A DNA stretch of 64,000 nt. Source: an uncultured Candidatus Peribacteria bacterium (GTDB lineage Bacteria > Patescibacteriota > Gracilibacteria > Peribacterales > Peribacteraceae). Below, piece after piece: positions 1,456-62,509 of the stretch. The position numbers were made by a program, and so were the translations under genes. The notes under the pieces are model-generated. The model saw only the letters and a program-made list of their open reading frames with translations. It did no database searches and was not told the origin of the DNA. Location of the stretch: assembly GCA_964563915.1 (NCBI GenBank), contig CAZLYW010000001.1, forward strand, positions 560-64,559, given 5' to 3'. Within the stretch, counting starts at the first letter, position 1; each line of letters opens with the position of its first letter.

Positions 1456-1923
1456 TCATGCCCCCTTCTTCGCCTGCACCTCTTCCTTCGCGACGCTCAC
1501 CTGTAACGGATACGTCTGCTCTCCGATCTTCACCTGCACTGTGAAGTTTCCGATCGCCTTGATGGGATCGCCGATCTGGATGTTGTCGGCAGGAACCGTG
1601 ACGGAATGTTCTTCTGCAAGTGCGGTGCTGATCTGGTCCGCCGTGATCGCCGCGTAGAGCTTGTCGGTCTTCGTTCCCTTCCGCGTGAAGTGCACGATCT
1701 TGCCCGTGAGCATGCCGGCAGCCTCGAGGTGGAGTTTGCGCTCATGTTCTTTCTCTTCGGCGCGGCGCTTGATCTCTTCGGCGTAGCGCTTGCGGACAGT
1801 GGGGGTTGCGACGAGAGCCTTCCTCTCCGGGAGGAGGTGATTGAGCGCAAAGCCGTCCTTCACGACGATGATGTCGTTACGCTTGCCAATGCCGTTGATA
1901 TCTTCCAGGAGGAGGAGTTCCAT
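1456..1923 (-). CDS. rplI: 50S ribosomal protein L9
   Basis: Translation from the internal ATG gives MELLLLEDINGIGKRNDIIVVKDGFALNHL, the conserved L9 N-terminus. The 9 upstream codons of the tracked ORF are judged non-coding. Confidence 0.85.
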   Translation of the reverse strand: MELLLLEDINGIGKRNDIIVVKDGFALNHLLPERKALVATPTVRKRYAEEIKRRAEEKEHERKLHLEAAGMLTGKIVHFTRKGTKTDKLYAAITADQISTALAEEHSVTVPADNIQIGDPIKAIGNFTVQVKIGEQTYPLQVSVAKEEVQAKKGA

Positions 1924-2066
1924 TGGCGGGAGTGACGAATCGCTGTGCATAGGCTGCTCAAGAGAGCCGAAGCAGTCTACGCGTCTGCCATGGAGACGTC
2001 AATGCTTGAGGAGAGTGACGGGTTTGGGCTTGCGCGGATCTCCAATGAATAGTTTGGTATGGTTCA

Positions 2067-4274
2067 TCACAGCAATGACGGCAACCACCGGAAGAACGAG
2101 CTCCACCGGACTCCCGGCTTGAATTGCCGTTCCTGCTTCACGTACCACTTGTCGAGTGTGAGGAAGCGGTCGCTGTGGAGTGAGAGCGCGCCGAGTTCGA
2201 TGCCGAAGATGTCGCGATGGTGGGCGAAGACGTACTGCGGCGAGTAGAGGAAAATCGCGGGCGCGTCATTGCGCAGGATGTCGCGGAGTTCCTTGAGCGA
2301 TTCCTGTCGTTCCTTCTCGTTCGTCGTCCTGCGGATCGTCTCGAGTTCCGTATCGGCCTTGAAGGAGACGTACTGCGAGAGGTTGTAGGCGTCTTGTCGC
2401 AGATTGGTGTCCTGTCCCGTGAGCTTCTGGATAGCGCTGCTGTGCCAGTACGGGTAGCTGTCCAGGTTATCCAGGAGCGACTGCCCGAAGAGGAGGATAT
2501 CGTAGTCGCGGCGGAGCAGTCGGTCCTGGAATTCCTGCGGCGAGGCCGCGACTTCCACCTTCACACGCACGCCGAGTTGCAGCCACTGTCGCGATACTTC
2601 GTCGGCGACGGTGCGGTAGGGTCCAGGCGCATCGCTCGTGAGGAGCCGCAACTCCAGCGGCGCTCCTCTTTCGTTCACGCGGATGCTCACCGGATCGGAT
2701 TCTCTGCGGAAGCGAAGCATGGCCGCATCCAGGGCGAGATTGCCGATCGTGATCTTCTGGGGAATGTTCGGTGCACCATCTTTGGTCTCGCGGTAGAGGC
2801 GCGCGAGCCGGAGTTCTTCGGAAGCGCGGTCGAACTCCTCGCGATCACTCGCAGCGAACACGTAGAAGGAATCGAGAATGCGGTTCTTGCCATCGGTCAC
2901 CTTCACGAGGTTCTCGCCCTGGGCGAGCGCTCCCGTTCCGTGGAGGAATGGGATCTCCACGAGCCAGGAGCCCGAACCCGAGTGACCCGGCCGGAGCGCA
3001 ATGCCGTTGACCTTGGCGAGGCGCAGCGCCGGCACGTAGGCGCCGGTGAGCGTGAGCGCGCCACCCTCCCGCAGGAGGACAATCGGCGGAGGGTGGATCA
3101 GTCCGGCGGTATTCGCGTCCTCCTGCTCGAGCACGCGCTGTAGACGCAGGCGCTCGGGGAGATTCCAACGAGAGGCGAGGAGAGCGCCTTGTGCCGCATC
3201 GGGATCGAACTTGTAGTGCCAGTCGCTCGTATCGATCTCGAGGAGGGGGGTATCGACGATGACGGATTCGTGGACGACATCGGCGATCGCCTGCTTGTCG
3301 GTACCCTGCTGGAGGCCGACGCGGAGCTTGCCATCCTGGAGCGCCGGGCGATCGAGGTTGAAGAAGAGGGCGACGTACTGCGGCAGCGTATAGCGGAGCG
3401 TCGCAAAGCGCTTCGCGATGATCGGCTGGCCGTCGTCGTTTCGGGGAACCAGCCGGACCCCGTCGAGGTGACTCACGTCGAGAAGGAGCGACGAGTAGTC
3501 GGAGAAGATGCGGAAGACGATGCCGTCGAGCCGGTAGACCGGACTGAGCGTCCGCGGAAAGCGTTCGAGCGTCACTTCGGTGCTCACGTCGGTGCGGACG
3601 ACGGACTTGACACGGTAGGGTCCGGCGCCGACAGGAGAGAACCCGAAATCGACCGCTTGATCGAGCGCCCCGGCCGGGATCCCCTCGAATGATGCTTTCG
3701 GGAGCAGGCCGAGTGTCAGATTACTCGGGAAGAAGCTGTAGGGCTGCTCGAGGGTGAAGCGGACCGTGCGATCATCGACCTTGTCGACACGGATGCCGCG
3801 GAAGTTCTGGCGCAGCAATGCGTTCGGGAATTGCGGCTCCTGGATCGCCTTGAACGTGAAGAGGACATCGTCGGCGGTGACGGGGTGTGGATGCTCCTCC
3901 GAGGAGTCGTGCCAGGAGAGATCGTCCTTCAGGCGGACAGTGTAGACTTTCGCATCGCGCGAAACCTCCATCGTCGCGAGGTCGTCTTCGATCGCACGGG
4001 TGAGCGGGTTGTAGCGCTGCAGACCGGCGAAGACGAGGGAGACGATGTCACGGTTGACGTCGTTGCGGACGATGAACCAGGGATTGAGCGGCAGGAGGTC
4101 GCCGACGGTGCCTTCGATGTAGGTTCCGCCCTCAGCGGGAAGGAGGATGGAATGACGGAGGTAAAAGAGTCTCAGCAATCCTGCGCCGCTTGCGAGCAGT
4201 AGGAGAACGAGCAGCGAGAGGATCCACCTCTCCCAGCGCGTCATTGCGGAGAGGAGTTGCAGAATGCGCCGCAT
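2067..4274 (-). CDS. membrane-anchored solute-binding protein, family 5 (Opp/Dpp-like)
   Basis: 735 aa with a single N-terminal TM anchor. Size and motifs (NPW...DIVSLVFAGLQRYNP) are typical of OppA/DppA-type binding proteins. No partner permease genes are in the window. Confidence 0.65.
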   Translation of the reverse strand: MRRILQLLSAMTRWERWILSLLVLLLLASGAGLLRLFYLRHSILLPAEGGTYIEGTVGDLLPLNPWFIVRNDVNRDIVSLVFAGLQRYNPLTRAIEDDLATMEVSRDAKVYTVRLKDDLSWHDSSEEHPHPVTADDVLFTFKAIQEPQFPNALLRQNFRGIRVDKVDDRTVRFTLEQPYSFFPSNLTLGLLPKASFEGIPAGALDQAVDFGFSPVGAGPYRVKSVVRTDVSTEVTLERFPRTLSPVYRLDGIVFRIFSDYSSLLLDVSHLDGVRLVPRNDDGQPIIAKRFATLRYTLPQYVALFFNLDRPALQDGKLRVGLQQGTDKQAIADVVHESVIVDTPLLEIDTSDWHYKFDPDAAQGALLASRWNLPERLRLQRVLEQEDANTAGLIHPPPIVLLREGGALTLTGAYVPALRLAKVNGIALRPGHSGSGSWLVEIPFLHGTGALAQGENLVKVTDGKNRILDSFYVFAASDREEFDRASEELRLARLYRETKDGAPNIPQKITIGNLALDAAMLRFRRESDPVSIRVNERGAPLELRLLTSDAPGPYRTVADEVSRQWLQLGVRVKVEVAASPQEFQDRLLRRDYDILLFGQSLLDNLDSYPYWHSSAIQKLTGQDTNLRQDAYNLSQYVSFKADTELETIRRTTNEKERQESLKELRDILRNDAPAIFLYSPQYVFAHHRDIFGIELGALSLHSDRFLTLDKWYVKQERQFKPGVRWSSFFRWLPSLL

Positions 4275-4290
4275 GAGCGTCGTGGGTGGT

Positions 4291-4512
4291 TTAGGAAGGC
4301 AGGTACCACAGCAGGACCGCGATACCGAAGAAGGCGACAGAGAGGAGAATCGTCATTGTGTAGATGACCTGCTCCGCTCCCCGTCGCTGCACGTAGACGG
4401 CTCCGCTACCGCCGAATGTGGAGGTGAGCCCCGAGACCCGGTGCTGCACGAGGATGCAGAGGCACAGGAGGACCGCGATGATGGCTTCGATCCAGAGGAA
4501 GATGCTGGTCAT
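4291..4512 (-). CDS. secG: preprotein translocase subunit SecG
   Basis: 73 aa with two TM helices flanking a Gly-rich loop (STFGGSGAVY), the typical SecG layout. Confidence 0.75.
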   Translation of the reverse strand: MTSIFLWIEAIIAVLLCLCILVQHRVSGLTSTFGGSGAVYVQRRGAEQVIYTMTILLSVAFFGIAVLLWYLPS

Positions 4513-4572
4513 AGGACTGATGAAGGTTACGCGAACATTCCCACTCGGGCAACGTCTCTGGTAGTCTCAAAT

Positions 4573-4648
4573 GGGCGGTTAGCTCAGTGGTCAGAGCGGC
4601 CGGTTTACACCCGGTAGGTCACAGGTTCGACCCCTGTACCGCCCACCA
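4573..4648 (+). tRNA. tRNA-Val (anticodon TAC), CCA encoded
   Basis: Hand-folded cloverleaf: acceptor GGGCGGT/ACCGCCC, D arm GCTC-AGTGGTCA-GAGC, anticodon stem GCCGG/CCGGT with loop TTTACAC, T arm ACAGG-TTCGACC-CCTGT, discriminator A plus CCA. Confidence 0.9.
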
Positions 4649-4741: not shown

Positions 4742-5332
4742 ATGCGCACATCCCTCATCGCTCTCACCGCCGTCTCTCTTCTTTTCCCGTTCGCGGTCTT
4801 CGCCTACGGAAAGCGACCGATCGGCGCGACCCGGTCGATGTCCAGGAGATCGACGACCGGTGTGTTCATTGATCGCCAGGTGTGGCTGCCGGGAACATGG
4901 TCCGTGGAGACCGGGACCGGTTCGCTGACCTTTGGGAGAATGCACGCCGACAAGGTGCATCGCAGCGTCGTGCGCCTGACGCTCATGCCGCGCGACCAGT
5001 GCGGCTACGGCTTCGTCCGGATTCGCGCGCTCAAGGCCTGGGGCGGAAGATTTCTGGAGCAATCGCAGGGACGGATCGAGCCGATCAGCTTTGGGACGAG
5101 TAAGTACAAGGGCTACTCGTGGGTCGAACCCTCGACCTGGAGTGGAGATCGCCACTGGTGTGTTGCGCAGGACCTGAAGAACGCGATGGAACTGATCGCG
5201 CCACTCGGCGACGAGGAACTCATCACATTCATCCGCAACGACTTGCTGCTGCAGCTGGCAGTGCGCAGCGGCCGTTCGGTGCTCCCGTGGCCGGTGGCAT
5301 CGGAGCACCCGCCATCGTCTCCCGCACGGTGA
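4742..5332 (+). CDS. hypothetical secreted protein
   Basis: An internal ATG gives the signal-peptide-like MRTSLIALTAVSLLFPFAVFAYG. Composition is protein-like, whereas the overlapping minus-strand ORF is Arg-rich. Confidence 0.55.
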   Translation: MRTSLIALTAVSLLFPFAVFAYGKRPIGATRSMSRRSTTGVFIDRQVWLPGTWSVETGTGSLTFGRMHADKVHRSVVRLTLMPRDQCGYGFVRIRALKAWGGRFLEQSQGRIEPISFGTSKYKGYSWVEPSTWSGDRHWCVAQDLKNAMELIAPLGDEELITFIRNDLLLQLAVRSGRSVLPWPVASEHPPSSPAR

Positions 5333-11434: not shown

Positions 11435-12495
11435 GGGCTCGCCAGTGTACCAAGAAACAGATCAACCGTCCTCCTCCAGGAATAGACCGCTGACCGTTGG
11501 ATGGCCTTCTGAGAGAGATGTTTGCGCAGTCCGTCATCCGTCAGGAGCGTCTCGAGTCCCTGCACGATGGACGCAACATCCTCGGGGTCAACGATCAATG
11601 CCGCGCCCTCAGCGAGTTCCTTGAGACTTCCGCGATTGCTTGTGAGAACCGGTATCCCGCGCTGGAGCGCATCCAGAATCTGCATCCCGAATCCTTCGTA
11701 GAGCGACGGCAGCGCGAAGATGTGACAGGAGTTCAGCAACGACTCATACGCCGCGGCATCGATGTACCCGCGCCACTGTACTCCAGCCGTGTTCTTCGCC
11801 TTGCACACGATCTCGTCATCGTCCCACCCGCGTCCTCCCGCCAAAATCAATTGATGGGAATTGCGAAGATCTTCTGGGAGAGACGTGAACGCCTTGATCA
11901 ATCGCAGCTGGTTTTTCCGGGGGCAGAGTGTCGCGACGCAAAGGATGGTTTTGGCATCCGGATGAGGTTTTTCAGGATGCATGTGCATCGGTCCGGCGAA
12001 GACCGGCGTGACGCGCTCACGGGGCACACGCGGGTAGCGGCGAAGGAGATCGCGCTTCGTCGACTCGCTGATGGTGCACAGGTGATGTGCCCTCCTGACT
12101 GCCCGGGGCAGCGTCAGCCGCTCAATCAATTTTGCTTTGCGATCGTGCGGTTCGTCCATGAAGGCGATGAGATCATGAATCACGGGGATGCAGCGAACCG
12201 ATCGCGGAACGAATGCCGGGACGATGGTACTGACCGGACTGACGTATGTGACGCCCGAGTGATTCCGTAGCCACTGCAGAACGTTCCAGTGCCATCGCAG
12301 ACCCTTCCCCGGAATACGGATGACGCCGCACGCTGTCTTCAGCCACTCCGAGGGGATGTCGGCATCGGTGAAGAGCGTCACGGGGATCTTGCGTCGGAGG
12401 AGTTCGCTGACGAAGCCGTGTGTCCACTGCGCTTTCCCCGTTCGGTTCGGGCGGCATGCTTCACGCACGTCGATGACGAGAACTCCGTGATGCAT
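11428..12495 (-). CDS. glycosyltransferase, GT4 family
   Basis: C-terminal [11 protein letters not shown] motif and GT-B layout. Confidence 0.85.
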
Positions 12496-54416: not shown

Positions 54417-54555
54417 GATTGGGGGATAGCTGTGAGCGAAGCGAACTCACTACTATAACATAATTTTATAGTTTATGCAAGTACTCTGGAAATTAGAGGA
54501 CAGGGAAGCACAAAGGCTTGTCGGGAGAAAGGACTATTTTCCATTCCGTGTCTCC

Positions 54556-54604
54556 TTGCCGCCTTGCGGACGATGGAGTAGAATAAGTACGTATTTACGT
54601 ACTT
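54556..54604 (+). promoter_or_regulatory. yefM-yoeB promoter (TTGCCG-17-TAGAAT) with overlapping 20-bp palindromic operator AAGTACGTATTTACGTACTT
   Basis: -35 at 54556-54561, -10 at 54579-54584, palindrome at 54585-54604, ending 4 nt before the yefM ATG. It has GTAC cores, as in known yefM-yoeB operators. Confidence 0.5.
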
Positions 54605-54608
54605 TTGC

Positions 54609-54854
54609 ATGACGACGACCACCTACACCGAACTCCGAGCCAACCTTGCGCGTTTCCTCAACCGGGCGGAAGAGAATTGCGAGGAAATCGTCGTCAGCCG
54701 TGGGAAACAGAGAAACGTCATTATCCTGTCCCTCGATGATTATCTGTCGCTCCAGGAAACTGCCTACCTGCTGTCGTCGAAAAAGAACCGGCAGCATCTG
54801 GAAAAATCCCTGGCGGAAGAGCGAAAAGGAAAGACCATCCGCATGAACTTCTGA
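54609..54854 (+). CDS. yefM: antitoxin, Phd/YefM family
   Basis: 81 aa. The N-terminus TYTELRANLARFLNRAEENCEEIVVSR is typical of YefM. Confidence 0.9.
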   Translation: MTTTTYTELRANLARFLNRAEENCEEIVVSRGKQRNVIILSLDDYLSLQETAYLLSSKKNRQHLEKSLAEERKGKTIRMNF

Positions 54855-54861
54855 AGACGAC

Positions 54862-55116
54862 GTGGAGATCCGTTTCACCGAATCGGCGCACAAGGACTAT
54901 CAGTATTGGAAGCGAACGGATCCTAAAAAAACAGAGCGCATCGAGAAGATATGCAAAGATGCTCTCCTTCACCCGTTCGAGGGAATGGGGAAACCGGAGC
55001 CTCTGAAGTTCGATCTACAGGGATGCTGGTCCAGGAGAATCGACCGCACGCATCGCCTTGTGTACCGTGTCACGGAAAAAGCGATTGTCGTACTTTCGTG
55101 CAGATACCACTACTAA
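54862..55116 (+). CDS. yoeB: toxin, YoeB/Txe family (RelE fold mRNA interferase)
   Basis: 84 aa with KDYQYWKRTDPK...GCWSRRIDRTHRLVYRV...SCRYHY. GTG start 7 nt after the yefM stop. Confidence 0.9.
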   Translation: MEIRFTESAHKDYQYWKRTDPKKTERIEKICKDALLHPFEGMGKPEPLKFDLQGCWSRRIDRTHRLVYRVTEKAIVVLSCRYHY

Positions 55117-55159
55117 CTCCGAATCTCTATTGCTCGTCATGCATCTTTTGCTTCTGCTA

Positions 55160-55187
55160 TTGACAATAGTATCAAAAAATGTAAATT
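55160..55187 (+). promoter_or_regulatory. promoter TTGACA-16-TAAATT ending 7 nt before ATG 55195 (leaderless mRNA candidate)
   Basis: -35 at 55160-55165 and -10 at 55182-55187. There is no room for a Shine-Dalgarno sequence. Confidence 0.4.
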
Positions 55188-55194
55188 ATGCATC

Positions 55195-56082
55195 ATGTCT
55201 TCCAAGCCGCGAATCTCCGATATCGTCGAAGCGTCGAAAGGCACCCTTCGGGTGCAGCACTCCATGGGCTCTGGCGATCCGTACATTTCGCAAGCACGAC
55301 TCATGCTCGCCGTTCTGCACGACGGCACGGAGGATCGCCTGCTCGGTGATGTCCAAGAAATCTTTGCGTCGTATCGAGAACATCTTCGTGAATACATTCA
55401 TATCGAGCGCGACATCGGAACGACGGAACTCGCCGACGACGTGCGAGAGGACATCAAGGGCACGCTCGCGCTTCACGTTCTCCCTCCTCGCGGCATCGTC
55501 GATGTCAATCGCCTGCGGGAGTGCGCGCTCCCGATGGAATTTCCGCCTAATTGCACTGACCGGATCACGGAGCAGCTGCTTCAACTGCACTCGAGTACGG
55601 TCACCGCGATGCAACTGGCGCTCGATGAAACCAAGGATGGACGAGGCGCTCGAACCGTTCTGGATCTCCACAGTATGTCCCCGTGGAGTCCGGCCGGCAT
55701 GGCGCCGAAGACGCAATGGAATTGGCTCGAGAAGCATGTTGCCTATTGGGCGAACGCGGTCGGCGGCGAACCTCGCCCGATCGATCTGATCGATGCGACC
55801 GAAGACGGTGAGATGATCGGCGATCGGAAATTGTCGGAGCAATTGAAGTCAGCATTTGAGCAGAGCGGTTATCCCGTTGCATTCAATAAGCCTTATGCGA
55901 AATCCCGCAAGCGCCACCCCATGTTCACTGAGAAGAGAGGAGTCTCTGTGGATTTCCGAAAGGATGATCTTGCCGATAGTCCCGGGGAAAGATTCAATCT
56001 TGTCGATTGTCTTCCCTCCAAGGGGAAAATAGCGAGAGTTGCTGGAATTCTCGGAGAAGTACTGAAGAAGTACCTACGCTGA
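55195..56082 (+). CDS. N-formylglutamate amidohydrolase (FGase)-fold zinc amidohydrolase
   Basis: Ordered motifs LHDGT, ERDIGTTELA, RGIVDVNR, LDLHSM and FNKPYA mirror the FGase family signature (His/Asp metal ligands, DxNR, HS, NxPY). Confidence 0.6.
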   Translation: MSSKPRISDIVEASKGTLRVQHSMGSGDPYISQARLMLAVLHDGTEDRLLGDVQEIFASYREHLREYIHIERDIGTTELADDVREDIKGTLALHVLPPRGIVDVNRLRECALPMEFPPNCTDRITEQLLQLHSSTVTAMQLALDETKDGRGARTVLDLHSMSPWSPAGMAPKTQWNWLEKHVAYWANAVGGEPRPIDLIDATEDGEMIGDRKLSEQLKSAFEQSGYPVAFNKPYAKSRKRHPMFTEKRGVSVDFRKDDLADSPGERFNLVDCLPSKGKIARVAGILGEVLKKYLR

Positions 56083-57474
56083 ATCGCCTACTGACCCAGT
56101 AAACGCCCCTTGTGTGCCGGGGAAATCGGGGTAGTGCGAACGGCCGTTCTTCCGGAGTTTCTCGAGTGCCTTCGATGCGAAGCCCATCTGCAGCAGGTGT
56201 GCGGCGGATGGAGCCACATCGGCATCGTCATCGAAGAGCATCGATCCGTTCATCCGGTAGGTGTCGCCGTGGTGTGTCAGGGCGATGAGATGTAGCAGTT
56301 GATCCGGATGCCCCTCGACAGCCAGAGGAACGATCGCGCGCCTGAAGGATTCCGAATCGCCGTGGAACGTGCCAGTGAAGCTGACCATGCGCTTGCGGAT
56401 ACGCTCGTTGCGTGCCTCACACAGGTACGGCGTCATGCCCGTCATCCGAAAGTTAGGATCGGTGATGAAGAAACGGCCGTGGTGGTCCACGAGGACATCG
56501 AAGCCTCCCACCCCGTACCAACCGCGCTCGCGGACGGCGGGGAGGATGACGCGGAGGAGAAGATCGTTGACGCCGTCAATCGTCGGCATCAGATGATCGG
56601 GGTCAACGATGCCGCCGATGAATTCCCCCTCGGGCGTCGTCAACTGCTCGCTGACGCCGATGATTTCCACGGGAAAGCGGCGGTCGTGGGGAATCCCGAA
56701 CTGAATGCCGAAATTCCGTGCGACGTCGATGTACTCCTGCACGAGAATCGACGACCGAATCTCCGCGTACTCGCCTTGGGCATCCAGCAATTGGCGGCGG
56801 GTCCGGCAGATGCGGACGCCGTCGCCGGAACTGGAGGACGATACTTTCACCACACACGGCAGGGGGAACTTCCCCGTGTACTGTGCGAATGCCGCCCCGC
56901 TGGGAAACACAGCGTAGCGATCGGGCAGGTACGCCGCGGGAACGATGGACTGCAAATGCACTTTATCGTTCAGCCAAATCGTCCAATCCGTGGGAAATTG
57001 AAAACGATCTTTCAGCATCGCATCGTCGTACGGCTGCGCCATGATGAATCCGCCTTCATCGGCGAGATTCCGCAGCGCTTCTTTGACGAGCACATTCCGG
57101 TGCTCACCCACAATCTCGGGGCCGATCGTTTCGGGCAACCGGAAAATGCAGTCATCCCGGACGAGGGAGACACCGAGGTCATCGCGGAGAATCGAGAGAA
57201 CGTGGGGCTCGATGGCGGCAGGAAAGACGATGGGGCGAACAGATGCTCCAGCGCAGACGAGCGAGCGGGCTGCGACGAGTTCCTCACTCACCGGCGGGAC
57301 GCGGTTGAAGAACTGCGAATCCTGCCCTGCAGGATACCCGTAGAAGTACTGGGTACCGGCGGGGAAATACCGCGAGAGACTCACGGTATCCCTTCCCGTG
57401 GTGACCGGGAACCATGAGGAGCATACGGACGTGCGCGGGCGCTCAGCGAGCGCGGAGACATCCGGAGGGGGCAT
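56074..57474 (-). CDS. ATP-grasp domain protein (amidoligase-like)
   Basis: Has PLPCVVKVSSSSSGDGVRIC, ILVQEYI and FITDPNFRMTG (E/DxNxR Mg site). About 190 N-terminal residues are unassigned. Confidence 0.7.
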   Translation of the reverse strand: MPPPDVSALAERPRTSVCSSWFPVTTGRDTVSLSRYFPAGTQYFYGYPAGQDSQFFNRVPPVSEELVAARSLVCAGASVRPIVFPAAIEPHVLSILRDDLGVSLVRDDCIFRLPETIGPEIVGEHRNVLVKEALRNLADEGGFIMAQPYDDAMLKDRFQFPTDWTIWLNDKVHLQSIVPAAYLPDRYAVFPSGAAFAQYTGKFPLPCVVKVSSSSSGDGVRICRTRRQLLDAQGEYAEIRSSILVQEYIDVARNFGIQFGIPHDRRFPVEIIGVSEQLTTPEGEFIGGIVDPDHLMPTIDGVNDLLLRVILPAVRERGWYGVGGFDVLVDHHGRFFITDPNFRMTGMTPYLCEARNERIRKRMVSFTGTFHGDSESFRRAIVPLAVEGHPDQLLHLIALTHHGDTYRMNGSMLFDDDADVAPSAAHLLQMGFASKALEKLRKNGRSHYPDFPGTQGAFTGSVGDSA

Positions 57475-57496
57475 AGGAGAGAGGGAGAGAACACGC

Positions 57497-57526
57497 TTGA
57501 CCTCTCACAAATAGCTAAAATACAAT
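57497..57526 (+). promoter_or_regulatory. orphan promoter-like TTGACC-18-TACAAT pointing into a non-coding stretch
   Basis: -35 at 57497-57502 and -10 at 57521-57526. No credible ORF follows before the repeat at 57819. Confidence 0.3.
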
Positions 57527-57818
57527 AAAAAAGCTATTTTGTATATATTACGCATCTTCTCCGGAAATGCAAGGGTCTAGACAGCGACATTTTGACAAAC
57601 CACGCTGATTTTTTGAGCAGCGCTTGCCGATAGGAAAAGACAGGCATTCTCTCGCACATGTGCCTTTGGAGAGGCCCACTGAAGCTCTGAACGATGCGCC
57701 GCCTTCGGCGGCATCTCCGTGTTCTGGCCCCGCACAACTCGCTGCGCTCGTATGCGGGGCCAAGGATCTTCGGCCTCATGCTTCACCTTTCAGGCTCGCG
57801 TTCAGCTCGAATTCACCT

Positions 57819-57951
57819 TGGTCGGGACGACCCCTCTTCGCGCCTTCCCACTGCGTTCTGCGAACTTCGCGGGACAAGTCGGCGCTTCGCCGGGGTCGTT
57901 CGCAGATGATGCTTCTTCCAAATGTTTTTGGAAGTAATTTCTCTGGTCGGG
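57819..57951. repeat. left 133-bp direct repeat (att-like)
   Basis: Identical base for base to 62308-62440. Begins with tggtcgggacgac (13-nt tRNA-Pro 3' end, reverse strand) and ends with tggtcggg. Confidence 0.9.
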
Positions 57952-58160
57952 CACTGGCAGCACAACTCGAACGCCTACGATTGTATCAGTTGCAGAAGGG
58001 AAATCTCGGAAAACGGTACGTCGAAGTGATCCGAGAGTTCATCCCGCAGTATCGGCCACGAAATGAGAATGAGCTGGCTGTATTGAGCCGAAATCTTCCT
58101 GTTTCCTCTATAACCTGACCCGTTCTCGAACGAAGAGCGAATATACCATGTTTATTCATA

Positions 58161-58189
58161 TTGACAATGTGCAATCTGCATGCAATAAT
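58161..58189 (+). promoter_or_regulatory. promoter-like TTGACA-17-AATAAT inside the element
   Basis: -35 at 58161-58166 and -10 at 58184-58189, about 30 nt upstream of ATG 58220. Confidence 0.35.
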
Positions 58190-58219
58190 TCCAGAGCTAC
58201 TTCTTTCTATCACTTTTAT

Positions 58220-58456
58220 ATGGGTATTATGCAAAGAGAGGCTTTGGACAGTTATTCTGAAAGGCTGGCAGCAGCTGGAGTTCCCACAGAGGATGCACGA
58301 AGGATTGCGTATACGCGCTTTGTTGAAGCTGATAGTAAAATTGATCGTAAAGAAATGGATACAGCGCTGCGAACAGAATTAGCAGCTCTTCGAGGCCGAT
58401 ATCAGGATATCATTGATCGTGTCCCTATGGGCTTTGTGAATCGAGATGCTCTGTGA
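58220..58456 (+). CDS. hypothetical small protein (element cargo)
   Basis: 78 aa from the internal ATG (MGIMQREALDSYSERLAAAG...); helical; lies in G+C-poor DNA. Confidence 0.35.
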   Translation: MGIMQREALDSYSERLAAAGVPTEDARRIAYTRFVEADSKIDRKEMDTALRTELAALRGRYQDIIDRVPMGFVNRDAL

Positions 58457-58559
58457 GAGAGGCAATAATAGCAAGAATGAACATCTCACATGACACAGAC
58501 GAGATACCCTCAACGGTGGGGGTATTTCAGGCATGAGATTTCCATGAGAGAATACTGCT

Positions 58560-59111
58560 ATGCCGCCTGCCGTTTCCGAGAAACGAACAACTGCAAACCG
58601 CAACAATAGCACCCTCGGCGGTGTGAAATCCGCACACGGAAAATCCGTCGTGCGTCACAATGCTCGCACGCACGGCATCCTCGCCGAACTACGAACGAAG
58701 TACGAAGGCAATGCCTACGATGGCTACCTACGTCGCCTGCATTGTGAATATGACCCACAAGGCTTCATGGAGGGGCTTCTCGTCGAGCGCATCGCCATCT
58801 GTTGTCTAATGCTGTACCGCGCCGCGAAAGCCGAGCGGGAATTCATGCTGATGCGCCTGAAGCCGCCTATCAGTGACCGCCTGTGCTTCATCGACTTCGA
58901 CGACGAGAGCTACAAGCCCGTCATTCAGCACGCGGACATCGAACGGTTGTCGTCGGTGTACCTGCGCTACCAGACGACCATCGAGAACCGTCTCTACAAG
59001 GCGATGCACGAACTGGAGCGGTTACAGCGCATGAGGAAAGGCGAAGCTGTCGCAAGCCCCGTCATGGTCGATGTGTCGAACGACGACGGTGGGTTTGTTT
59101 CGCAGAAATGA
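58560..59111 (+). CDS. hypothetical protein (element cargo)
   Basis: 183 aa. The N-terminal basic segment with the NARTHGILA motif recurs, in my recollection, in uncharacterised proteins of mobile elements. Its stop overlaps the next start (ATGA). Confidence 0.5.
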   Translation: MPPAVSEKRTTANRNNSTLGGVKSAHGKSVVRHNARTHGILAELRTKYEGNAYDGYLRRLHCEYDPQGFMEGLLVERIAICCLMLYRAAKAEREFMLMRLKPPISDRLCFIDFDDESYKPVIQHADIERLSSVYLRYQTTIENRLYKAMHELERLQRMRKGEAVASPVMVDVSNDDGGFVSQK

Positions 59112-59413
59112 TCATGGACAGAAAAACCATCAGGAAATTGCAACTGGCGTACTGGAACGGCTACGACATCGATGCGGCCTGCCTCTACGCGGGGGTCGCA
59201 GAGGAGGACTACGAGAAAGCCATCGAAGCCGACGCAGAGTTCGCACGTCGCATGGCACTGGCGCAGCTCTATCCGAAAGTGAAGGCGCAGATGGAGATGG
59301 CACACAGCATTGCGAAGGGCGACGGGCAGCTGGCGATGCAATTCCTCGAACGGCGCGACCCTGCACGCTATGACCCGCAGTACATCAGGAAGTTCGGGCA
59401 GGCTCCCGATTGA
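59108..59413 (+). CDS. HTH protein resembling phage small terminase / transposase-HTH proteins
   Basis: 101 aa. GYDIDAACLYAGVAEEDYEKAIEADAEFARRMALAQ...AMQFLERRDPARYDP resembles the HTH plus WLLERR-type tail of small terminase-like proteins. Confidence 0.45.
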   Translation: MIMDRKTIRKLQLAYWNGYDIDAACLYAGVAEEDYEKAIEADAEFARRMALAQLYPKVKAQMEMAHSIAKGDGQLAMQFLERRDPARYDPQYIRKFGQAPD

Positions 59414-59427
59414 GGTACAGTGGGACA

Positions 59428-60270
59428 ATGCGCCTGATCTCGTTCCTCTCGGCATGTCGGGAGTGCCACTTCGCTGTCGACGAGGCGCTGTTCCGCACAC
59501 CCGAAGCACGGCGATATTTCACTTCTCTCCCGAAGAAACTCTCGACTTTTCGAGAGTACGACGGCTTCCATCGCTTTGATCTTTTCTTCGTCGATTGCCT
59601 CCTTCATCGCGAAGTCGGCAAGGAGGACTTCTACGTTCGCATGATCAGGCTCGTGAAGGACATCGAGGCCGCCTACAACGACGCACACCGTTCCATCAGC
59701 ATGGACGTTGACCGAGAGAACGCTCGCCGTCGAAATCTTACAAAAGCGCAGCACATATTGCGTGCGGAGCTACATCCTCTGACACTCCCTGAAGAACAGG
59801 AACTCTTCGACATGAAGAGCGAGAAGGCATTGAAGTTTATTCTGTCCCGCCTGAATGTACCCGTCGCCGACGCCGCCGAGATGCGGCTCGAACTCTACGG
59901 GCGGATTCTGCGCACCGACAACTACGTCAAAGTCCGCCGTATCCTCTCGAAGCTCTCGGTGGAGGATCGCCTCGCACTGGATGCGAACTCCATCGGGGAA
60001 ACCCGCTACGCGCACGTCCTCTACGCCATCGACGCCTGCCTCGCACGCTACATGAGCTTCGTACTCGGGAAACCCGTCAGTGCCATCCTCTCGGGCGACG
60101 ACCTCACGAAACCCTCTGCGTACAGTCTGTGCCCGTACTGCGGGGATCGGATCGTCGATGTCGGCAGGCAGCGGCGCAAGTGCTGCACGAAAGGCGCGTG
60201 CCGTCGCGAGTACGAGCGGGTACGCAAGCGAGAGCGACGGGAGCGGGAGCGTGCGGACAGGAAGCACTGA
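59428..60270 (+). CDS. hypothetical protein with C-terminal zinc ribbon and basic tail
   Basis: 280 aa ending CPYCGDRIV...RRKCCTKGACRREYERVRKRERRERER. Confidence 0.45.
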   Translation: MRLISFLSACRECHFAVDEALFRTPEARRYFTSLPKKLSTFREYDGFHRFDLFFVDCLLHREVGKEDFYVRMIRLVKDIEAAYNDAHRSISMDVDRENARRRNLTKAQHILRAELHPLTLPEEQELFDMKSEKALKFILSRLNVPVADAAEMRLELYGRILRTDNYVKVRRILSKLSVEDRLALDANSIGETRYAHVLYAIDACLARYMSFVLGKPVSAILSGDDLTKPSAYSLCPYCGDRIVDVGRQRRKCCTKGACRREYERVRKRERRERERADRKH

Positions 60271-60340
60271 TGTGTCCCACCGACGTTCTGATTCTGTCCC
60301 ACCCATCTGAAAGCGCTCTCGACGGGCGCACCATCGCTCG

Positions 60341-60604
60341 GTGAACGCTCGCACGAAGCACGCAGAGGCCACCGAGACTGTTGATCTCGCCGAAGAGGCG
60401 ATGGAAGTCTTCGCGTCGCAGATCGCCCCGCTCACGGCGTACTTCAAGCGGCACACCTCCTGCCCTATCCCCTACGAGATCAAGGGCAATCGCATCTACG
60501 TGCGTGGCGAGGACTGGGGCAACGCAGAGACGTTCTTCGCAGAGGGATCACGGCTCGTCGAACTCGTTTCGCACTGTCATGGTATCCGCACGGCCTGCGC
60601 CTGA
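60341..60604 (+). CDS. hypothetical small protein
   Basis: 87-aa ORF with a GTG start and no motif. Weak call. Confidence 0.25.
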   Translation: MNARTKHAEATETVDLAEEAMEVFASQIAPLTAYFKRHTSCPIPYEIKGNRIYVRGEDWGNAETFFAEGSRLVELVSHCHGIRTACA

Positions 60605-60629
60605 AGCGAAAAACAGATACAATGCACGT

Positions 60630-62398
60630 ATGTTCCTCGATGAACTCCCCGACATTCGCGACGTGCAGTTTTCCTTTGGGCGCAAAGCACGTGATCAGAA
60701 GGCGAAGAACTACGTCATCTACTGCCGCAAGTCCGACGAGCGCGATGATCGCACCAGCATCCCCGCGCAGCTGCGCCAGTGTCAGGAACTCGCGCGCAAG
60801 GAGGGTCTGCACGTCATCGGCATCATCCGCGAGCAGATGAGCGCACGGAGCCGCGGGCATCTGAAGTTCACAAACCTCATCCGCGCCATCAAGGGCGAGG
60901 AGGAACTCGATTGCCTCGACGACGCATGAAGCGCAGCAAGGAACGCCCTGACGGCATCATTGCGTGGCACCCTGACAGGTTGGCGCGCAACATGCCCGAC
61001 GCCGCCGAGATCATCGACCTCCTCGACGAGGGGCCGCTCGCCGACATGCAGTTCGCCATGTATTCCTTCCACAATGATTCGTCGGGGAAGGAGCACCTCG
61101 CCATGGAGTTCGCCCGCGCGAAGGCGTACTCGGATCACCTGCAAGACAACGTGCTACGGGGGCTCATCCAACAGGAACTCCATGGACGCGGTACGCGCCC
61201 GCTCCCCCCTGCCTTCGCAGTCGTCGATGACGAGGATGACCCCGACTACCTCAAGATCATCCCCTCGCCACTCCATGAACACTGGCGCAGAGCCTTTGAG
61301 TGGAAGCGCAGCGGTATGGCGAACGAGGAGATCGCACGGAAACTCGTGGAGGAAAAAAAATACGTCCACCGCAACTGGTACAAAAAGCAGTGGAAGACGG
61401 TGAACGTCGACAAAGACTACATCGGGAAGCACCTGAAAAATCCTCTGCACTGCGGGTGGCTTGTGACGGGCGAGAACAGCAAGGAACCCCGCCGCGTCGA
61501 TCTGAACGCGATCTACCCCGAGCAGTTTCATCATCCCTTCCCCGTCGTTCTTACCCTCGAAGAGTTCAAACAGATCAATCCCGATCTCTTCAGCGACACT
61601 GCCCGCAATGCTCTGCGCCCGCGCAGGCGCAGCGAGTATCCGCTCTCGGGCAAGGTGTTCTGCAAGGAGCTGCACGCACGCGGGGAGCTTGCGACCATGA
61701 CGGGCAGCACGAACACGGGCGGGTCAGGGAAACCCTCGCCGCGCTTCGCCTGCCAGCGCTGCCGCCCGACGCACAGCATCAACATGGACAAGCTCTACAA
61801 GGCCGTCGAGGTCAAGCTGCGGTGCGTGAAGCTCACCGAGCGCGAGCACACGAAGTTCGTCATCACCGCATGGCACAAGTACGAGGGCGAGCGGGAGGCC
61901 GAGGACGCCGAGCGTCGGCAGCTCAATGCCCTCGAAGGGCAAAACACCCTCGACATCACCGAAGCGCGCGAGGTGCTCAACACCATGCGGTACGGGAAGC
62001 CGAAGGCGGCAGACACGGACATTGCCGTGCAGGTCATACGTCTTGAACGGCTCGAAACAGAGCAGCAATCCATCGGGAAGCGGAAGGAGAAGCTGAACGA
62101 AGACAGCACCCAGCGGTACTGGGAGCTCGACGCCTTCCTCGAACTCGCGAAAAACGCCTCTGTGTGGTGGAAAAAGGCGAGTCCCGAAAAAAAGCGCAAA
62201 CTCGCCGATCTCATCGTCTCGAACGTGGTTGTGGATGCCGACGGAACGGCTACGGTGAGCCTCACTCCCGACTTCGAGGAATGGTCAAAACGGGGAAAAA
62301 CAGACGATGGTCGGGACGACCCCTCTTCGCGCCTTCCCACTGCGTTCTGCGAACTTCGCGGGACAAGTCGGCGCTTCGCCGGGGTCGTTCGCAGATGA
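60630..62398 (+). pseudogene. large serine recombinase, reading frame broken at 60926-60929
   Basis: Frame A (60630-60929) has NYVIYCRKSDERDD, the catalytic Ser region. Frame B, from ATG 60926, has PDGIIAWHPDRLARN, a recombinase domain, the Cys cluster CKELH...CQRCRP and a coiled coil. The ATGA overlap splits the catalytic domain. Confidence 0.75.
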
Positions 62399-62440
62399 TG
62401 CTTCTTCCAAATGTTTTTGGAAGTAATTTCTCTGGTCGGG
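62308..62440. repeat. right 133-bp direct repeat (att-like), overlapping the last 8 nt of tRNA-Pro
   Basis: Identical to 57819-57951. Contains the last 30 codons and the stop of the recombinase ORF. Confidence 0.9.
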
Positions 62441-62509
62441 ACGACTGGACTTGAACCAGCGACCTCTTGCACCCCATGCAAGCGCTCTAGCCAACTGAGC
62501 TACGTCCCG
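62433..62509 (-). tRNA. tRNA-Pro (anticodon GGG), CCA encoded
   Basis: The reverse complement folds as acceptor CGGGACG/CGTCCCG, D arm GCTC-AGTTGGCTA-GAGC, anticodon stem CTTGC/GCAAG with loop ATGGGGT, T arm GCTGG-TTCAAGT-CCAGT, then ACCA. Confidence 0.9.

Follow-up and report, generated by a model that had tools for sequence, protein, structure and literature searches.

A putative serine-recombinase element at a tRNA-Pro gene of Candidatus Peribacteria and the 133-bp repeat around it

Here we analysed a stretch of 64,000 nucleotides from an uncultured Candidatus Peribacteria bacterium (contig CAZLYW010000001.1, positions 560 to 64,559; the whole of this stretch is called the window), in which an integrative element encoding a large serine recombinase (LSR) lies beside a tRNA-Pro(GGG) gene and between two direct repeats of 133 bp. 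The question raised by this locus is how such a repeat came to surround such an enzyme, given that it is tyrosine integrases that typically leave a long identity at tRNA 3' ends (PMC10484663). The original prediction, made from the letters of the window, had regarded this combination as unexpected and had considered, among other options, that the 133 bp represent the identity between the attachment sites of element and chromosome (attP and attB). The explanation that we consider probable as a whole is that the LSR inserted its element at tRNA-Pro through a short core, and that a unit of host DNA lying next to the tRNA was duplicated by a second event.

Layout of the locus and its attachment sites

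Transfer RNA genes were called with ARAGORN and Rfam, the recombinase family was assigned with Pfam profiles and PHROG, and its structure was approached through an AlphaFold2 (AF2) model and Foldseek. We refer to the left flank as F, to the 125-bp unit formed by a 13-mer and a 112-nt spacer as U, and to the mobile unit as E (Table 1); loci in related genomes and contigs are numbered L001 and so forth. The anatomy described by the original prediction was borne out. The two repeat copies are 100% identical, both tRNA searches recover the tRNA-Pro(GGG) next to the right copy (it is the sole match of the Rfam scan), and the repeated fragments of the tRNA 3' end are present as well: the 13-mer TGGTCGGGACGAC, which corresponds to the final 13 nt of the tRNA in reverse complement, is found at 57819, 62308 and 62433 (three exact copies observed against zero expected from 100 shuffles), and the 8-mer TGGTCGGG has an additional copy at 57944. 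On the plus strand the order is F, U, 8-mer, the 4356-bp interior of E, 13-mer, 112-nt spacer, 13-mer and tRNA body. That this is an integrative element at tRNA-Pro with an LSR as its only recombinase is also supported, and the Pfam and PHROG searches gave no tyrosine recombinase (Phage_integrase match) among the open reading frames (ORFs) of 57819-62440.

Table 1. Features of the locus (positions are counted from the first nucleotide of the window)
Feature	Position	Strand or side	Remarks
Older insertion block	54450-57818	same tRNA side	YefM/YoeB toxin-antitoxin pair 54609-55116, FGase-like 55195-56082, ATP-grasp 56074-57474, flank F
Distal 13-mer (c1)	57819-57831		repeats the final 13 nt of tRNA-Pro; interpreted as the tRNA's original 3' end, since displaced
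Left 133-bp repeat copy	57819-57951		U and 8-bp core; identical to 62308-62440
attL core TGGTCGGG	57944-57951	+	host arm (U end) joins P' arm; layout as in L001, L003, L010 and L012
P' half-site	57952-57972	+	ACTCGAAC at 57965-57972, starting 21 nt after the T of TGG
C-terminal extension coding sequence	57952-58118	+	about 55 amino acids; in frame with 60926-62315 only once attP is re-formed
Cargo ORFs	58148-58456, 58560-59111, 59114-59413, 59410-60270	+	no Pfam match; function unassigned by family
87-amino-acid ORF	60341-60604	+	directly upstream of the recombinase; no family match
LSR-N (ORF 1)	60630-60929	+	99 amino acids; strand 1 to helix B, catalytic Ser (YCRKS); Pfam Resolvase positions 2-62
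LSR-C (ORF 2)	60926-62398	+	490 amino acids in the integrated state; Resolvase positions 62-140 and Pfam Recombinase
Right junction core	62308-62315	+	P arm (recombinase 3' end), core, then ACGAC and U start, not tRNA body
Right 133-bp repeat copy	62308-62440		U and core; L007 spans E to tRNA contiguously
Intact, unoccupied attB	62421-62456		U end, core, tRNA acceptor/T-arm; ACTTGAAC at 62449-62456; arrangement as in E-free relatives
tRNA-Pro(GGG), complete	62433-62509	minus	ARAGORN; Rfam RF00005, 64.1 bits

The attachment sites themselves become apparent when the left ends of the element in the window and of four relatives (L001, L003, L010 and L012) are aligned, each passing from host flank through TGGTCG or TGGTGG into a conserved arm, GGGCAGCACAACTCGAAC. 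The identity shared between the left and right junctions (attL and attR) amounts to 8 bp in the window and to 6, 7, 10 and 6 bp in these relatives, respectively, a length that is accounted for by serine recombinase strand exchange at a central dinucleotide. Moreover, counted from the T of TGG, the start of the motif ACT(C/T)GAAC is 21 nt downstream in each of the five P' arms but 16 nt in the tRNAs, where it is the T-loop; this offset agrees with the published rule for LSRs, according to which the attP copy of the motif bound by the zinc-ribbon domain is moved outward by 5 bp with respect to that of attB (PMC3783163). The offset is visible on the P'/B' side only, the P and B arms having no obvious symmetry, and it places the crossover at about positions 5-7 of TGGTCGG, that is, in the last acceptor base pairs. 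Because the shared core is short and the motif is offset in the relatives, the element proper is bounded by the cores at 57944-57951 and 62308-62315, and E is probably the segment 57944-62315, core to core (4356 bp plus the 8-bp core). The closest relative, L011, has a near-identical P arm fused straight to the tRNA, with U absent from the right junction. A symmetric B arm in flank F (GTTCAGCT) was not reproduced in the relatives and was treated as chance.

The LSR would then exchange strands within TGGTCG(GG), which corresponds to the CCA, the discriminator and the first acceptor bases at the tRNA-Pro 3' end. One half-site of attB would be the acceptor and T-arm of the tRNA, and the P' arm would mimic this half-site with its T-loop-like motif 5 bp further out. 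Since E would bring identical terminal bases, the tRNA would remain intact, and the re-formed canonical attP junction of E would read ...ACAGACGATGGTCGGGCACTGGCAGC....

Origin of the repeated unit and of its duplication

The identity of U was addressed by using the exact 3' half of the window tRNA-Pro(GGG) as a query against one genome per species, and nine Candidatus Peribacteria/Peregrinibacteria genomes share this half, a result by which the lineage of the host is identified. No U copy was found in seven of the nine, a count in which it matters that the L014 locus holds no flank. In L018 and L021, which have no E genes, a single U-orthologous unit lies directly 3' of tRNA-Pro and consists of TGGTCGGGACGAC (TGGTCGGGGCGAC in L021) and a 76-78-nt spacer alignable to that of the window, followed by the tRNA; relative to both, the spacer of the window carries a 34-nt internal insertion. 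The distal 13-mer of L018 and L021 abuts the flank motif GTGGCTTGCCATGAGG-hairpin-GAA, and the same motif abuts the tRNA in L013 and attL in L003, which argues that the end of the original tRNA was displaced to become the distal 13-mer and that the spacer is what an older insertion left behind. To judge from these genomes, U is host DNA older than E, and what forms the 133-bp repeat is relic DNA of the host that has been duplicated, rather than an attachment site. Among the options of the original prediction was an earlier insertion of which a core-plus-spacer unit had remained as a relic; this fits the origin of the repeat unit, and the check that it had named, related genomes with a single copy after tRNA-Pro and without the element, is answered by L018 and L021. 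An attP/attB identity of 133 bp, on the other hand, is not supported, as the family relatives share only 6-10 bp between their junctions and U is single-copy in these E-free genomes. The apparent conflict between a serine recombinase and a long identity hence disappears, the long repeat being a secondary duplication of host DNA around an ordinary short-core insertion. A further candidate, U as element DNA left by a tandem E-E array from which one copy was deleted, was ruled out by the same single copies beside tRNA-Pro.

On the tRNA strand U folds into a short and a long hairpin (z = -3.8), the 3' arm of the long one overlapping the 13-mer. Two hairpins are seen in the spacer copies (57832-57943 and 62321-62432), one of them terminator-like on the plus strand at 62404-62423, just past the recombinase stop, and in L021 the changes within the long spacer hairpin are in part compensatory.

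In at least six other samples there are contigs that match the window at 99.9-100% identity and allow the junctions to be followed independently. This population is present in JGI 3300022563, 3300009691, 3300009444, 3300017437 and 3300025157, in ENA ERZ27245644/685 and in SRR5747841/861. The U/E junction is present in L009 (the same contig as L026), L027, L028, L029 and L022 (JGI 3300022563, Ga0212128_10017920), the E/U junction in L022, and the passage from E through the whole of U to the tRNA and on to the enolase gene in L007. From the left, L006 runs from F through U and ends exactly at 57951, and L008 ends inside U; L009/L026, L027, L028 and L029 run from E leftward into the U end and stop at 57834, 57833, 57853 and 57922. 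That contigs stop inside U or at its end, at points fitting likely k-mer sizes, is explained by a true repeat. No F/E or E/tRNA junction was found in any contig carrying parts of E, which makes a mixture of two simple insertion alleles unlikely, and a chimera of one allele with E in the tRNA core and another with E in the distal core was rejected on this ground. L022 reads U-E-U with an overlap in the middle of U and looks like a circular 4489-bp unit; its 48-bp overlap is unlike the usual k-mer sizes.

The left junction is a canonical attL (U end, core, P') formed at the core next to the tRNA, and the right junction reads P, core, ACGAC and U start, its host arm being that of the distal 13-mer and not that of the tRNA. 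Because one serine-recombinase event draws both host arms from a single site, it cannot account for a U on either side of E, and this calls for one more recombination, at the repeated cores of 13 bp. As to order and mechanism, we infer as the most likely history that E first inserted canonically at the tRNA and that the repeated cores then took part in a further recombination. Four routes may be envisaged: (a) the attR 13-mer could have recombined with the distal 13-mer, either by unequal exchange with excision of one copy or by templated switching; (b) the distal 13-mer could have served as a pseudo-attB in another chromosome, with homologous exchange within E afterwards; (c) a circle of E and U could have formed and re-entered through U in Campbell fashion; or (d) a slippage duplication U-U could have come before, E inserting at the middle core. 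For the first two routes, both junction types would subsequently be united on one molecule by homologous recombination through E or U. These routes may not be firmly ranked, since (b) and (d) use a site without the T-arm motif and (a) and (c) need a rare 13-bp event. Tandem and relic copies of the family are found at other tRNA sites (L003 and L010), indicating that the tRNA sites of this family accumulate and rearrange insertions.

Several points weigh against a short-core insertion with subsequent duplication of U. The distal core, lacking the T-arm motif, is a poor target for a serine recombinase, and exchange on 13 bp of microhomology is rare. No empty site (F-U-tRNA) of the same species was recovered, the empty state being deduced from the right-hand copy and from other species. 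The activity of the recombinase, especially in the two-ORF form described below, is a prediction. Finally, for k<133 a de Bruijn graph has the same loop whether the DNA is F-U-E-U-tRNA or F-U-tRNA accompanied by a free E+U circle, and L022, a contig of 4537 bp with a 48-bp terminal overlap, does look circular. It could hence be proposed that the chromosome is empty and that a separate E+U circle of 4489 bp, which an aberrant excision or homologous exchange between the U copies would have released, was threaded once into the contig by the assembler. We regard this as rather unlikely, even though L022 covers 57853-62389 with its terminal overlap inside U, L006 ends exactly at the U end and, the graph topology being the same, the window contig is not independent evidence of integration. 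The relatives for which both flanks are available (L001, L003, L010 and L012) are all chromosomally integrated at a tRNA and E has no replication gene recognisable by Pfam or PHROG, two facts that favour integration. In addition, a circle of this kind would have attL-like and attR-like sites instead of attP, leaving the full-length recombinase unrestored, and the E end, U and tRNA are joined in one contig (L007).

Again less probable is a route in which imprecise excision yielded an E circle carrying a captured U, and this circle re-entered an empty F-U-tRNA chromosome by RecA-dependent homologous exchange across U, in which case the 133-bp identity would be the cause of this particular insertion. 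The Campbell-type option of the original prediction, not supported as an attP/attB identity of 133 bp, survives here as one possible route to the duplication through a captured-U circle. Such re-entry would leave precisely the order F-U-E-U-tRNA with a perfect copy of U at either end, there is an E+U contig of circular appearance (L022), and U, as host DNA, must have been captured; the price is three events (insertion, aberrant excision at the 13-bp cores and re-entry into a naive chromosome) and the same unexplained E/U junction, so that it is a sub-route of the explanation preferred here and not a different anatomy. Replication slippage commonly takes place between short repeats separated by about 100 bp, and a tandem U-U could have formed first in this manner between the 13-bp repeats 125 bp apart, E then entering the middle core. 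Only two steps would be required and the B arm of the middle site (U end) is the same as that of the true attB; but the middle core has no tRNA T-arm motif, an adjacent perfect attB would have stayed unused, and a U-U allele is seen in none of the nine related genomes, so we hold this order of events to be very improbable. Hardly any weight is given to the 133 bp being the true attachment site of a tyrosine-type or other long-core system, or to a chimera of two insertion alleles. The long identity that tyrosine integrases typically show at tRNA 3' ends would suit the former, but 57.8-62.4 kb contains no tyrosine recombinase, U is host DNA in E-free genomes, the F/E and E/tRNA junctions are missing from all contigs carrying parts of E, and the F contigs L006 and L008 continue into U with no branching at the distal core.

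A recombinase in two ORFs whose reading frame spans attP

The recombinase was recognised correctly as an LSR by the original prediction, but it is encoded by two ORFs and not by one. LSR-C supplies what remains of the catalytic domain together with the recombinase domain, zinc ribbon and coiled coil. Among 5.8 billion proteins, homologues comprise a tight group of about 28 at 49-65% identity, separated by a wide gap from ordinary serine integrases below 30%. The C-termini of the homologues are antisense translations of tRNAs (for example ...DGRDGGTRTHGLLVPNQAL and ...ALYQLSYAP), the gene running into an opposite-strand tRNA, which is Pro(TGG) in L001, Pro(GGG) in L003, L004, L005 and L011, Ile(TAT) in L010 and another tRNA in L012; no spacer or long repeat was found at any of these loci. 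In the family alignment Y31, R33, S35, D116, R117 and R120 are invariant, comprising the Ser nucleophile and the DRLxR motif, as are C345, C375 and C378 of the zinc ribbon, with H382 nearly so. An AF2 model was available for a fused homologue, P0003, which is 59% identical to the window protein and is not that protein itself; with a mean predicted local confidence (pLDDT) of 79.5 it has the full LSR architecture, including a coiled coil of about 110 residues (helices 407-458 and 465-519), and in Foldseek it is matched best by the integrases of SPbeta, phiC31 and Bxb1 and by 4kis. At the sequence level the distance is larger: phmmer of the reconstructed protein against PDB gave no match and a profile search against PDB gave only marginal matches to TnpX and TP901-1. 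A scan of viral_contigs with the recombinase alignment found no relative, and exact-protein look-ups of P0001, the 286-amino-acid ORF and the 91-amino-acid ORF returned no record.

An LSR in a single polypeptide is missing from the window, L010, L011 and L012, where two ORFs are joined by an ATGA overlap (60926-60929 in the window, 10001-10004 in L010, 1237-1240 in L011 and 4265-4268 in L012). The split is thus conserved in four elements that are about 60% identical, other family members being fused, and P0012, P0019 and P0027 begin at the same split point. ORF 1 is more conserved than ORF 2 in comparison with L010, L011 and L012 (66-76% against 59-65% amino acid identity). A frameshift due to sequencing error or to recent pseudogene formation was ruled out, the two-ORF sequence of the window being identical in four other assemblies and the same ATGA being present in L010, L011 and L012. 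When ORF 1 was searched against 1.84 billion proteins, three close clusters only were obtained, together with many distant matches of about 100 amino acids that are not interpretable as splits. In the P0003 model the split falls in the loop between helix B and strand 3, which would place the Ser and the DRLxR motif on different chains. No conserved slippery heptamer precedes the ORF junction, ATGA alone being conserved, and coupled translation of two chains is on this account likelier than frameshifting; termination-reinitiation giving two chains is favoured, although not proven, over a programmed -1 frameshift.

A second peculiarity of the gene concerns its 3' end. When P, core and P' are joined in the window, the ORF reads on as ...DGR-ALAAQLERLRLYQLQKGNLGKRYVEVIREFIPQYRPRNENELAVLSRNLPVSSIT*, and this extension is in frame in the window, L001, L010 and L012, with 54-61% identity in the latter three and the stop codon in the same place. 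The approximately 28 database homologues, all of them integrated copies, are without it. Since the reading frame spans attP, integration removes a conserved tail of about 55 residues and adds a few tRNA-encoded ones. In the window ORF 2 extends 91 nt into the right repeat copy, and the replacement tail is formed by its last 26 residues, encoded by U. In L003 the P' DNA motif is kept though the frame of the first 17 or so codons differs, which suggests that the P' motif is also conserved as a putative protein-binding site. Literature searches gave no example of a serine integrase with an att site within the integrase gene. Taking the comparisons together, the family is characterised by targeting of tRNA 3' ends, by attP within its own frame and, in one clade, by a natural split.

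We put forward, as a tentative possibility, that directionality in these elements is set by the integration state, through a tailed free form and a tRNA-tailed form with little or no recombination directionality factor, and, jointly with this, that the split clade is a natural two-chain LSR. The full-length form would then favour integration and the tail-swapped form excision, and the active site would be assembled from a 99-residue Ser subunit and a DRLxR subunit of about 470-520 residues.

Neighbouring genes and relation to known systems

The only PHROG match among the four cargo ORFs of E is that of 59114-59413 to phrog_4102, a terminase small subunit (E 6.4e-07), and three of the four are common to L003 only (55-69% amino acid identity). 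The 87-amino-acid ORF is the only other gene present in all five relatives compared (tblastn against L001, L003, L010, L011 and L012) and is a candidate directionality factor or regulator. To the left of U, the older insertion block lies between the DHH gene and tRNA-Pro and has a lower G+C at its left edge; its FGase-like and ATP-grasp genes were assigned by Pfam, and YefM/YoeB comes from precomputed Pfam results on the identical contig L006. The order DHH, tRNA-Pro, orf91 and enolase is found in L013, L016 and L019 without the genes of the older block, DHH being 0.25-1.7 kb from the tRNA in L013 and L016. This synteny indicates that everything from about 54.45 kb to the tRNA is accreted DNA in the window. 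The truncation of the enolase gene at the window edge is only apparent, the gene being intact in L007.

Traces of insertion were also observed at other loci. In L020 (JACPMB010000038.1) a different, frameshifted LSR at 1836-3127, with no detectable similarity to the window enzyme, runs antisense into an identical tRNA-Pro(GGG) 3' end (...NLSNGRDDWT*), so that the same antisense-tRNA geometry recurs in a second element lineage of Peregrinibacteria. In L010 the remnant 3' end of another family recombinase (4154-4576) is fused via the core to the current P' arm in an attP-like joint, which points to tandem accretion and decay at the tRNA-Ile site. Inside the element of L003 there is a second left-end remnant (5028-5202), with a TGGTGG core, the motif ATTCGAAC and an extension-like coding sequence, that belongs to a relative targeting a different tRNA. 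In L003, too, 21 nt from the 5' part of tRNA-Pro are duplicated perfectly (11762-11782 and 11847-11867) at a distance of 85 bp past the tRNA, which is suggestive of an earlier, separate insertion at the 5' side.

Placing the element among known systems requires taking into account two groups with which it shares different properties. With LSRs such as those of phiC31, Bxb1, Listeria A118/LI, SPbeta (SprA) and TP901-1 it has in common the Ser resolvase domain, recombinase domain, zinc ribbon and coiled coil, the short shared core, the attP motif 5 bp further outward, and a recombinase gene at one end of the element. It differs from them in that the target is the extreme 3' end of a tRNA, usually the territory of tyrosine integrases, with the gene reading antisense into it; in that attP lies inside the recombinase frame and the catalytic domain is spread over two overlapping ORFs in one clade; and in that the hosts identified here belong to the candidate phyla radiation (CPR; Peribacteria/Peregrinibacteria) and the sequence is remote from solved LSRs. 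With the tRNA islands of tyrosine integrases (P4-like, Islander-type) it shares insertion at the tRNA 3' end with restoration of the tRNA, displaced fragments of tRNA ends, tandem accretion and decayed relics, and the distal 13-mer with its spacer resembles such a relic. The enzyme family is however another one, the identity brought by the element itself is 6-10 bp instead of tens of bp, and the 133-bp repeat stems from duplication of host DNA rather than being an att core.

The position of attP within the gene has its own parallels. In the integration-dependent immunity of mycobacteriophages attP lies inside the repressor gene. The 'suicidal' tyrosine integrases of SSV type have their att site inside the integrase gene and have been called exclusive to archaea (PMC8371274). 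As in both of these systems, the att site here is within coding sequence of the element and the product differs between the free and integrated states; but whereas the SSV-type tyrosine recombinase gene is cut into two large parts, a bacterial (CPR) serine recombinase here loses only a tail of about 55 residues and gains a few tRNA-encoded ones.

A boundary-calling tool that relies on the longest direct repeat would place the ends of E wrongly. For the family, we are dealing with a small group of CPR serine integrases at the CCA/acceptor end of tRNAs, whose half-sites in attP and in attB can be precisely inferred, which is of use when integrases are mined in a group for which hardly any genetic tools exist. 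How much of the LSR fold needs covalent continuity is a matter on which the conserved split of the catalytic domain bears. An attP placed in frame could serve as a state-dependent switch of the C-terminus, and it bears on how the directionality of LSRs is controlled.

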